In this document: piece by piece, positions 42,765-45,024 of the stretch
Position numbering within the stretch: the stretch's first letter is position 1
Layout: each line of letters starts with the position of its first letter
Assembly (NCBI GenBank): GCA_948468315.1
Contig: CAOKHL010000004.1
Span: forward strand, 19,314-83,313
Source of the DNA: an uncultured Eubacteriales bacterium
GTDB lineage: Bacteria; Bacillota; Clostridia; TANB77; CAG-508
Direction of reading: 5' to 3'
Length of the DNA: 64,000 nucleotides
Translations under genes and position numbers: made by a program
The notes under the pieces: generated by a model
The model's input: only the letters and a program-made list of their open reading frames with translations
The model's database searches: none
Told to the model about the DNA's origin: nothing

Positions 42765-43118
42765 CTATAACAACTTTTTTGAATTTTGTCTTTTATTTAC
42801 AAATACATCTGTAATATAATTTTGCTGTTTATTTAGTTCTATTTTGTCTCTTTCTTCATTTTGCATTTTTATTATTTTTTCTTTTTGTTCTGATGTTGCT
42901 AAATAATCTCTAAATAGATTAAATAATATTGCTTTTGTTTCTGGTAACAAAGTATGTTCTTTTAATTCTAATTCATCATTTAATTCAAAAATGTATTCTT
43001 TGTTTCTATTTTCATCAATTGCTTTTATAACTTCAGAAGGAATTTTGTTAGATTCTTCTTCATTTAAATCTTTTAATATTATATATACTTCTGTATAAGC
43101 ATTTCTACGATTATTCAA
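42765..43118 (-). CDS. hypothetical protein
   Basis: 117-aa ORF. Confidence 0.3.
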   Translation of the reverse strand: MNNRRNAYTEVYIILKDLNEEESNKIPSEVIKAIDENRNKEYIFELNDELELKEHTLLPETKAILFNLFRDYLATSEQKEKIIKMQNEERDKIELNKQQNYITDVFVNKRQNSKKLL

Positions 43119-45024
43119 TTATATTTTCTCCTCCTTCTTTTGTCTGTTCTAATAGTTGTTTTAAAACAATATTTTCTCTATCTGTCATCTCCATATCTTT
43201 TAAAGAACTAAGTGAGGCTGCCGCTATTTCTCTTCCTGTCCTATTCTTCTTTTCAAGATTAATACCTAATTTTAATAGTTTCTTCACTTGTTCTTCTGTT
43301 GGCGGAATACAGCCTCCTTTCCCCCTATGCGCTTGAGAAATCTTGGTCTTTGTCATTCCTATTTTTTCTTTTAAATTTAGCCCTATCTTTTCTACCTCTT
43401 CTTTACTTATTCCTGACTTTTCTGCTAATGTTTCTATTGTATCTACTGCTATCATCTCTGATGTATCTACTCCTATTTCTTGCAACTTTTCTATTTTCTC
43501 TATAAATTCATTTACTGCCTTTCCTTTTTCTAAACTAATACCTAATTTTAATAGTTTTTGCACTTGTTCCTCTGTTGGCGGAATAAAGCCTCCTTTACCC
43601 CTATATGCTTGAGAAATCTTAGTCTTTGTCATTCCTATTTTTTCTTTTAAATTTAGCCCTATCTTTTCTACCTCTTCTTTACTTATTCCTGACTTTTCTG
43701 CTAATGTTTCTATTGTATCTACTGCTATCATCTCTGATGTATCTACTCCTATTTCTTGCAACTTTTCTATTTTCTCTATAAATTCATTTACTGCCTTTCC
43801 TTTTCCAACCCCTCTCCCTTTTTCTAAACTAATACCTAATTTTAATAGTTTTTGCACTTGTTCTTCTGTTGGCGGAATACAGCTTCCTTTCCCCCTATGC
43901 GCTTGAGAAATATTAGCCTTTGCATTTCCTATCTTTTCTTTTAAATTTAGCCCTATCTTTTCTACCTCTTCTTTACTTATTCCTGACTTTTCTGCTAATG
44001 TTTCTATTGTATCTACTGCTATCATCTCTGATGTATCTACTCCTATTTCTTGCAACTTTTCTATTTTCTCTATAAATTCATTTACTGCCTTTCCTTTTCC
44101 AACCCCTCTCCCTTTTTCTAAACTAATACCTAATTTTAATAGTTTTTGCACTTGTTCTTCTGTTGGCGGAATACAGCTTCCTTTCCCCCTATGCGCTTGA
44201 GAAATATTAGCCTTTGCATTTCCTATCTTTTCTTTTAAATTTAGCCCTATCTTTTCTACCTCTTCTTTACTTATTCCTGACTTTTCTGCTAATGTTTCTA
44301 TTGTATCTACTGCTATCATCTCTGATGTATCTACTCCTATTTCTTGCAACTTTTCTATTTTCTCTATAAATTCATTTACTGCCTTTCCTTTTCCAACCCC
44401 TCTCCCTTTTTCTAAACTAATACCTAATTTTAATAGTTTTTGCACTTGTTCTTCTGTTGGCGGAATACAGCTTCCTTTCCCCCTATGCGCTTGAGAAATA
44501 TTAGCCTTTGCATTTCCTATCTTTTCTTTTAAATTTAGCCCTATCTTTTCTACCTCTTCTTTACTTATTCCTGACTTTTCTGCTAATGTTTCTATTGTAT
44601 CTACTGCTATCATCTCTGATGTATCTACTCCTATTTCTTGCAACTTTTCTATTTTCTCTATAAATTCATTTACTGCCTTTCCTTTTCCAACCCCTCTCCC
44701 TTTTTCTAAACTAATACCTAATTTTAATAGTTTTTGCACTTGTTCTTCTGTTGGCGGAATACAGCTTCCTTTCCCCCTATGCGCTTGAGAAATATTAGCC
44801 TTTGCATTTCCTATCTTTTCTTTTAAATTTAGCCCTATCTTTTCTACCTCTTCTTTACTTATTCCTGACTTTTCTGCTAATGTTTCTATTGTATCTACTG
44901 CTATCATCTTTGATGTATCTACTCCCATTTCTTGCAACTTTTCTATTTTCTCTATAAATTCATTTACTGTATTTTTTCTTTTTTTAACTTCTATAAAATT
45001 ACCAACTCCAACTATATTCTTCAT
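43111..45024 (-). CDS. tandem-repeat protein, 637 aa, ~7 near-identical 94-98-aa units
   Basis: Repeat unit ...VNEFIEKIEKLQEIGVDTSEMIAVDTIETLAEKSGISKEEVEKIGLNLKEKIGNAKANISQAHRGKGSCIPPTEEQVQKLLKLGISLEKG... Confidence 0.55.
   Translation of the reverse strand: MKNIVGVGNFIEVKKRKNTVNEFIEKIEKLQEMGVDTSKMIAVDTIETLAEKSGISKEEVEKIGLNLKEKIGNAKANISQAHRGKGSCIPPTEEQVQKLLKLGISLEKGRGVGKGKAVNEFIEKIEKLQEIGVDTSEMIAVDTIETLAEKSGISKEEVEKIGLNLKEKIGNAKANISQAHRGKGSCIPPTEEQVQKLLKLGISLEKGRGVGKGKAVNEFIEKIEKLQEIGVDTSEMIAVDTIETLAEKSGISKEEVEKIGLNLKEKIGNAKANISQAHRGKGSCIPPTEEQVQKLLKLGISLEKGRGVGKGKAVNEFIEKIEKLQEIGVDTSEMIAVDTIETLAEKSGISKEEVEKIGLNLKEKIGNAKANISQAHRGKGSCIPPTEEQVQKLLKLGISLEKGRGVGKGKAVNEFIEKIEKLQEIGVDTSEMIAVDTIETLAEKSGISKEEVEKIGLNLKEKIGMTKTKISQAYRGKGGFIPPTEEQVQKLLKLGISLEKGKAVNEFIEKIEKLQEIGVDTSEMIAVDTIETLAEKSGISKEEVEKIGLNLKEKIGMTKTKISQAHRGKGGCIPPTEEQVKKLLKLGINLEKKNRTGREIAAASLSSLKDMEMTDRENIVLKQLLEQTKEGGENIIE
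43200..44950. repeat. in-frame DNA tandem repeats, period 282/294 bp, near-identical copies
   Basis: e.g. tttactgcctttcc recurs at 43787 and 44081 (294 bp apart). Confidence 0.8.

Follow-up and report, generated by a model that had tools for sequence, protein, structure and literature searches.

A free-standing array of six divergent HA-like modules and its small overlapping partner gene in an uncultured Clostridia genome

HA domains (Pfam PF03457, helicase-associated) are widespread on bacterial helicases, occur on some defence nucleases and transposon targeting proteins, and are almost uncharacterised. A passage of PMC12191111, citing the nuclear magnetic resonance (NMR) paper for PDB 2KTA, describes them as 'previously shown to bind DNA', and a preprint (bioRxiv 10.1101/2024.11.13.623437) treats HA as a DNA-binding domain; both cite Mills 2013 for this. 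Among the closest described systems, with the same preprint as source, are the TtrA-like superfamily 2 (SF2) helicases with tandem HA domains, represented by the Streptomyces conjugation/telomere helicase, and the HA-bearing TniQ of telomeric Tn7-like transposons. Here, we analyse a 64,000-nucleotide stretch (hereafter, the window) of contig CAOKHL010000004.1 from an uncultured Eubacteriales bacterium, which encodes a protein made of six tandem helical units and, overlapping the end of its gene, a small partner, s117. Sequence comparison indicates that each unit is a divergent HA-superfamily domain with a helix-turn-helix-like insertion. We consider it most likely (probability roughly 0.6) that this cytoplasmic six-module array is a multivalent DNA-binding or tethering platform, probably working with s117.

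The array repeat is genuine and clearly delimited. Tandem Repeats Finder gives it a period of 294 bp and 5.9 copies, with 97-98% matches (score approx. 2800 at 43260-44970), which is far beyond chance. An earlier account of this DNA, made from the letters alone (the sequence-only reading), had described about seven repeats of 282-294 bp at 43111-45024. It was right in substance about the repeat, exact on the coordinates of the open reading frame (ORF) and correct in the peptide motif it quoted for the unit, but there are six units when they are delimited by the anchor VNEFIEKIEKLQE, and the short unit measures 276 bp (table 1). Units 2-4 are 100% identical in DNA; unit 5 is approximately 93% identical and lacks a 6-residue piece of the linker, RGVGKG, while unit 6, approximately 90% identical to units 2-4, continues into a 42-aa tail that is unique within the array protein. 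Codons 1-50 are the same in all six units, save for the 2 nt that set unit 1 apart, and the remaining inter-unit differences are confined to unit positions 51-90. Compared with units 2-4, both unit 5 and unit 6 are changed at positions 54, 55, 57 and 58 (NA.AN to MT.TK) and at 68; positions 63 and 69 are altered in unit 5 alone, and 78, 86 and 90 in unit 6 alone. Most of these variable positions fall in predicted helix 4 and the loop that follows it. The G+C content of the window is approximately 27% throughout.

The sequence-only reading recognised no family for the unit, and this holds for Pfam, NCBIfam, PHROGs and PADLOC once scores summed over the repeats are set aside. No family in the curated libraries (Pfam, PHROGs) reached threshold for a single unit, and the whole array protein did so against NCBIfam and PADLOC solely via such summation, no stretch being significant alone in PADLOC. 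A profile hidden Markov model (HMM) of the unit was more informative: an exhaustive search of 1.84 billion representative sequences yielded 208 clusters at E <= 1e-3. Some of the weaker matches cover unit positions approximately 44-91 only, several times per protein, and the distant matches P0224, P0250, P0241, P0257, P0280 and P0279 (E 1e-15 to 3e-7) are multi-copy HA proteins in their own right according to Pfam (HA E 5e-29 to 2e-217). One of the six has ResIII/DEAD/Helicase_C domains followed by nine HA copies. With the HA sequence of PDB 2KTA as seed, 42 HA copies were taken from these proteins, and 20 sequences were aligned (alignment A5, which includes 2KTA). Comparison by hhalign with an alignment of 57 diverse units (A1; <=62% mutual identity) gave a match of 96.3% probability (E 2e-9), placing unit positions 50-86 on HA positions 30-65, whereas the reversed HA alignment scored 0.2% and 20 column shuffles <=1.6%. 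Reciprocally, the HA profile detected relatives of the array protein at 57-97 bits, compared with <=6.4 bits for reversed sequences. When helicase-fused relatives were compared by BLASTP with the HA-helicase P0241, the helicase cores aligned (E 5e-35 and 1e-30) and the alignment ran on colinearly through the repeats, with helix 1 of the unit (EFIxKLxxLQxxGVD) on helix 1 of HA (FExFYxxLxEYKxEFGDV) and a gap at the unit segment DTIETLAKKS.

It is because the distant matches are HA proteins, and because the profile-profile match stands against shuffled controls, that we assign the unit to the HA superfamily. In this correspondence, helix 1 of HA equates to helix 1 of the unit, helices 2-3 of HA have their counterparts in helices 4 and 5 of the unit, and the insertion between those parts comprises approximately 16-28 residues with the helix-turn-helix-like pattern DTIETLAxKSGIS.EEIEKIGL. 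A number of results weigh against the assignment. The Pfam model PF03457 matched neither the whole protein, nor a single unit, nor any of the 57 diverse units at E <= 10; the significant profile alignment is restricted to the C-terminal approximately 37 residues of the unit; and on the window protein the HA profile scored 33 bits in total, or 6-10 bits per unit. The unit profile gave no signal by hhalign against the lone 2KTA sequence, an alignment of HA copies being required. Structure comparison with Foldseek likewise gave no significant match of the unit to the PDB, with 2KTA outside the top 50.

The single-unit AlphaFold model used in that comparison was built from alignment A1 and has five helices (residues 2-13, 27-33, 38-43, 52-63 and 74-82) compared with the three-helix fold of 2KTA. 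Its confidence is high, with a predicted local distance difference test score (pLDDT) of 90.5 and a predicted template-modelling score (pTM) of 0.77. A single whole-unit superposition was found, in BFVD, with a phage protein annotated 'Helicase associated domain' (template-modelling score 0.56, root-mean-square deviation 3.0 A, 89 columns); with an E-value of 2.2, it is not significant. In the full-length model, pLDDT is approximately 80-85 for the units and under 50 for the Gly/Lys-rich linkers (EKGRGVGKGKA), and two helices are predicted in the tail (597-608 and 615-629). No fixed packing between units is predicted, and the low linker pLDDT together with a pTM of 0.26 leads us to picture the array as beads on a flexible string.

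Helix-hairpin-helix (HhH) modules, which bind DNA non-specifically, resemble the unit in being small, helical and sometimes tandem, and an HhH-like module was what the sequence-only reading had guessed. We find this identity barely tenable. HHH_5 does match one unit weakly (16.2 bits, E 0.015), and the whole protein reaches 41.6 bits over six repeats, with matches to RadA/RuvA N-terminal regions. The per-unit score lies below the Pfam cut-off of 27 bits, however, and is seen for only 1 of the 57 diverse units; the whole-protein matches to YidB, RadA and RuvA are inflated by six-fold repetition; the G-h-G hairpin motif with its glycines is not conserved in the unit consensus; and the profile-profile evidence makes the case for HA far stronger. 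The broader part of that guess, a nucleic-acid-binding helical module, is consistent with the HA homology. Other candidates were rejected too. LysM (PF01476) gave weak matches in 13 of the 57 units (best E 0.006) and the model is all-helical, with no strands; weak matches to HTH_3 and IF2_N, like those to LysM, stem only from the helix-turn-helix-like pattern of the insertion. A lipase-related protein at the top of a sequence profile search of the PDB (E 0.0017 over 46 residues) was judged fortuitous, and the linker between helicase and units in the fused relatives scored -2.3 bits as a canonical HA domain.

Both HA (exemplified by PDB 2KTA, residues 627-691 of Bacteroides vulgatus BVU_0683) and the unit described here form tandem arrays. 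They share the C-terminal two helices (unit, kIG..k..I..aYRGkG...PTeEQv..L..LGIsL; HA, kLG.Wv..QR.aYkgkg...lT.eqi..Ln.iGf.W), a helix 1 that is colinear in BLASTP and, in relatives of the window protein, a location C-terminal to ResIII/DEAD/Helicase_C helicases. They differ in that the unit has approximately 92-98 aa and five helices, compared with approximately 65 aa and three helices for HA, bears the helix-turn-helix-like insertion, lacks the signature Trp residues of HA, and belongs to a family of no more than a few hundred clusters, all of them from uncultured Clostridia of the gut. The parallel with TtrA-like helicases lies in the relatives, which combine an SF2 core, homologous to that of P0241, with a C-terminal HA-type array. 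The window protein, by contrast, has no SF2 core, its ORF beginning 19 residues ahead of unit 1. The fused relatives carry an additional N-terminal region of approximately 590 aa without a family match, a small partner gene and a conserved tail accompany the array family, and we found no link to linear replicons. We conclude that this insertion-bearing HA variant is previously unrecognised and uncatalogued, rare and lineage-restricted; it is no new kind of system, since the array is joined to large helicases in related gut Clostridia. By analogy only, the protein also recalls transcription activator-like (TAL) effectors, tandem helical-repeat nucleic-acid binders with near-identical coding repeats that differ at few positions. 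An array unit, however, has three times the length, and the prediction is one of independent beads rather than of a continuous superhelix; there is no sign of a recognition code, and variation in the array family is spread over many columns.

In a collection of 5.8 billion sequences, the window protein is a single cluster from a single contig (99.7 kb). Its relatives, with 44-58% identity to it and 4-8 units, fall into three architectures. In the first, the approximately 590-aa region is followed by ResIII/DEAD/Helicase_C, the units and the conserved tail, for a total of 1560-1960 aa. The second comprises free-standing arrays with the conserved tail, as in the window, and most of these proteins are basic (isoelectric point (pI) 9.1-9.6). 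In the third, an HNH-like N-terminal region precedes six units and the C-terminus is different. The tail is common to helicase-fused and free-standing relatives and has near-invariant residues at T596, A603, S604, S607 and D615. Scanning genome contigs with the whole protein gave no loci, whereas a narrower alignment gave 17, all of them in metagenome-assembled genomes (MAGs) of uncultured Clostridia from animal or human gut. No relative was found by tblastn in phage and plasmid records or in IMG/VR, and an exact-pattern search of JGI metagenomes gave no match.

Two variations on these architectures were observed. Proteins of the P0009 type (619 aa) have a tail fragment, TGKKIAKASIISLTKQKMKI, at residues 283-302, mid-array between units 3 and 4, and look like a fusion of two three-unit genes. 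In loci L031-L033, the HNH-like protein with six units (P0046) lies amid large genes without Pfam matches (833, 1082 and 551 aa), in a block that adjoins a MazE-like antitoxin and a tyrosine integrase, which suggests an uncharacterised mobile element.

The tandem HA arrays of TtrA-like SF2 helicases are the model for the role we propose: six five-helix modules, each folding independently on flexible Gly/Lys-rich linkers ahead of the two-helix tail, would most likely bind or tether DNA at several points. In related Clostridia, this array forms one covalent chain with an HNH-like region or with a large SF2 helicase; the window holds a free-standing version, in this reading released from the enzyme, with a promoter-like site and ribosome-binding site (RBS) of its own. 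Its product probably works with the translationally coupled s117, and would do so through contacts with the tail. DNA binding is favoured because of the HA literature, the helicase and HNH-like fusions and the fact that free-standing relatives mostly have a basic pI. Against it, the window protein is itself near-neutral (net +2, pI 7.9), and each unit has a net charge of 0, with acidic inserted helices 2-3.

The same near-neutral charge and acidic helices fit the main rival explanation, a protein-protein scaffold or regulator, for instance a helicase-less decoy that recruits s117 or a helicase/nuclease in trans, or competes with one of them. A conserved tail with a closely linked small partner would suit a protein complex, and the 3-6 tandem free-standing paralogues of one species would suit a dosage or decoy role. 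We nonetheless regard a scaffold as unlikely, given that the homologous domain is treated as DNA-binding in the passages cited above (PMC12191111; bioRxiv 10.1101/2024.11.13.623437), that the array has repeatedly been fused to DNA enzymes (SF2 helicase, HNH-like region), and that most free-standing relatives are strongly basic.

The partner in the DNA-binding platform we propose, s117, has no family assignment and belongs to a family of 1401 homologues, none of them annotated; like the array, it has no counterpart among the anti-phage defence families of PADLOC or the phage protein families of PHROGs. Homologues with 57-73% identity lie beside array genes, or in a cluster with them, at 11 of the 17 genome loci, usually overlapping the end of the array gene; a homologue is also linked to array genes in L028-L030. 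We infer that s117 contacts the conserved tail, because the HNH-type relative has neither the tail nor a partner gene. What weighs against this contact is that the argument draws on co-occurrence, with effectively one independent counter-example. A further point against the proposed reading is that addA and the conjugative element (20-39.7 kb) do not accompany the array in other genomes; functional links to either were rejected. No other neighbour in the window recurs beside the array genes of relatives, so the nearby conjugative element is probably coincidental.

In another Clostridia species (L028-L030, also L008), the partner gene leads a cluster between ftsZ and spoIIGA/sigE, with 3, 5 or 6 tandem free-standing array genes behind it, their number varying by sample. 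In contigs L018-L021, which are 95-100% identical to the window, an insertion sequence (IS) with a 310-aa rve-family transposase sits exactly at the s117 stop codon and lengthens s117 by 5 codons; homology to the window stops at 42766, where the window enters a NUDIX gene.

Given that the array is C-terminal on a 1560-1960 aa helicase in many relatives, and that the window contains no helicase copy (tblastn of two full-length relatives matches the repeat region only), the gene might be an inert leftover, the 3' end of a helicase-array gene that has lost its 5' portion. This appears very unlikely. The 637-aa ORF is intact and perfect homogenisation without loss of frame argues for a maintained reading frame, while free-standing arrays of similar length that resemble it at the N-terminus and share its tail are conserved in many genomes (P0097 on 41 contigs). 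The 208-bp gap between addA and the array ORF holds the best-scoring promoter-like site of the region, and the gene has a strong RBS; these consensus matches argue against a dead fragment.

A frame switch was observed in some of the helicase-fused genes. At four MAG loci, L006 (position approx. 510), L007 (8591), L011 (7760) and L012 (approx. 8590), the helicase and HA-like-array gene goes +1 at one shared codon, ...HGPVNT-ATT-C-GGN-AGN; if translation stays in the 0 frame, ATT CGG is followed by a stop within 1-4 codons. Both halves of the L007 and L011 genes have 73-84% protein identity to the intact gene of L017, which reads ACA ATA GGT at this point (L014: GGA). The conserved AUU-CGG site resembles the Ty1-type +1 frameshift site, the rarity of CGG being an expectation from the AT-rich genome rather than from codon counts, and Rfam gave no match to it. 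We regard it as a candidate programmed +1 frameshift, or else a case of recurrent pseudogenisation; the switch may be the reason that many database entries for the family begin at MLDELHRTGAKEWG.

The sequence-only reading also held the repeat to be near-perfect and homogenised at the DNA level, and the wider family bears this out. Across 30 non-redundant relatives, units of one protein resemble each other more than they do those of other proteins, whichever segment is compared (ratio 0.5-0.76); homogenisation is weakest in helix 4 and the two long loops. Averaged per protein, identity between units runs from 46 to 93% across relatives, with the window protein at the extreme. Unequal recombination or gene conversion would keep units near-identical in this way and would at the same time destabilise their number. 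Copy number indeed looks unstable, as had been anticipated: the family ranges from 4 to 8 units, and the tandem array paralogues of the other species number 3, 5 or 6 by sample. Ten contigs, from the same or a closely related organism, encode an identical s117 protein and are 95-100% identical in DNA to the window. Only L018 (96.6% identical) spans addA, array and partner; its gene encodes 251 aa with two units and falls short of that of the window by exactly 1158 bp (3x294+276), which reflects either true copy-number variation or assembly collapse.

That long perfect repeats risk assembly collapse, also pointed out in the sequence-only reading, is evident here, as the other nine of the ten contigs end inside the array, and so does L034, which was found via the NUDIX gene. 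The six-unit count could therefore be an artefact, the gene being real and its true unit number another. Three units at 100% and a fourth at 99.3% identity make approximately 1.2 kb that lies beyond short-read resolution, and the one spanning contig shows two units. On the other hand, the contig of the window passes straight through the array, relatives with diverged, assemblable units carry 4-8, so that six is typical, and the two-unit contig itself fits a collapsed assembly. We therefore judge an artefactual count to be possible but well short of an even chance, and infer true variation in copy number. The locus shows clearly how a tandem repeat in a coding region breaks or collapses metagenome assemblies, and the numbers of units and genes that public MAGs give for this family are untrustworthy without long reads.

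The unit thus adds a divergent HA subfamily that goes undetected by the copies of Pfam, NCBIfam, PHROGs and PADLOC searched. The free-standing arrays show that an HA-type array can exist without a helicase, and a conserved partner and tail are identified; array and s117 together are a compact, tractable pair of genes with which to study the binding targets of HA arrays and the way such arrays are coupled to enzymes. As a long shot, the free-standing arrays might be modular proteins of a lineage-specific class that recognise DNA or organise the nucleoid, in which beads read DNA via helix 4 and the following loop, recombination within and between arrays quickly reshuffles bead number and order, and s117 couples the array to an effector. 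If so, gut Clostridia would possess a fast-evolving, reprogrammable DNA-targeting module, the targeting half of the helicase-fused system as a separate gene.

Table 1. Coordinates of the array gene, its parts and other features of the window.
Feature	Position	Strand	Description
Array ORF	43111-45024	minus	637 aa: 19-aa leader, six HA-like units, conserved two-helix tail
Unit 1	44674-44967	minus	aa 20-117; 98 aa / 294 bp; 2 nt off units 2-4 (99.3%)
Unit 2	44380-44673	minus	aa 118-215; 98 aa / 294 bp
Unit 3	44086-44379	minus	aa 216-313; 294 bp; DNA identical to unit 2
Unit 4	43792-44085	minus	aa 314-411; 294 bp; DNA identical to unit 2
Unit 5	43516-43791	minus	aa 412-503; 92 aa / 276 bp; variant helix 4 MTKTKISQAY, short linker
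Unit 6	43240-43515	minus	aa 504-595; approx. 92 aa; variant helix 4, no Gly/Lys linker
Conserved C-terminal tail	43114-43239	minus	aa 596-637 (42 aa); TGREIAAASLSSLKDMEMTDRENIVLKQLLEQTKEGG...; two predicted helices
Putative promoter	45148-45176	minus	TTGACA, 17 nt, TAAAAT, with TG extension; 11/12 consensus matches
Shine-Dalgarno GGAGGG	45031-45036	minus	6 nt before ATG at 45024 (sequence reading)
s117 partner	42765-43118	minus	117 aa; TTG start; 8-bp overlap with the stop of the array gene
addA	45232-48909		Full-length AddA (TIGR02785, 1102 bits); upstream of array gene
Type IV coupling protein	21531-23306	minus	Conjugative-element set
SpaA-repeat adhesin	25422-28229	minus	935 aa; conjugative-element set
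Thioester-domain protein, sortase, type IV secretion system pilin-like protein	within 21531-39654	minus	Conjugative-element set
VirB4-like ATPase	33954-35816 plus 35758-36492	minus	Conjugative-element set
Replication-initiator-like HTH_36 protein	37542-38315	minus	Conjugative-element set
HNH endonuclease	39190-39654	minus	Conjugative-element set
glmS-like gene, apparently split	53715-55097 and 55165-55647	plus	460 aa (GATase + SIS) and 160 aa (SIS); 67 bp apart

Downstream of the array and s117 are genes for NUDIX, flavoprotein and DUF362 proteins. No AddB gene is present beside addA or elsewhere in the window; upstream of addA, three small plus-strand ORFs without a family match (49281-50926) are followed by uvrC. 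The genes at 21531-39654 make up a Gram-positive conjugative-element set that lies wholly on the minus strand. The apparent split of the glmS-like gene may be genuine, or may stem from a frameshift or a sequencing error.

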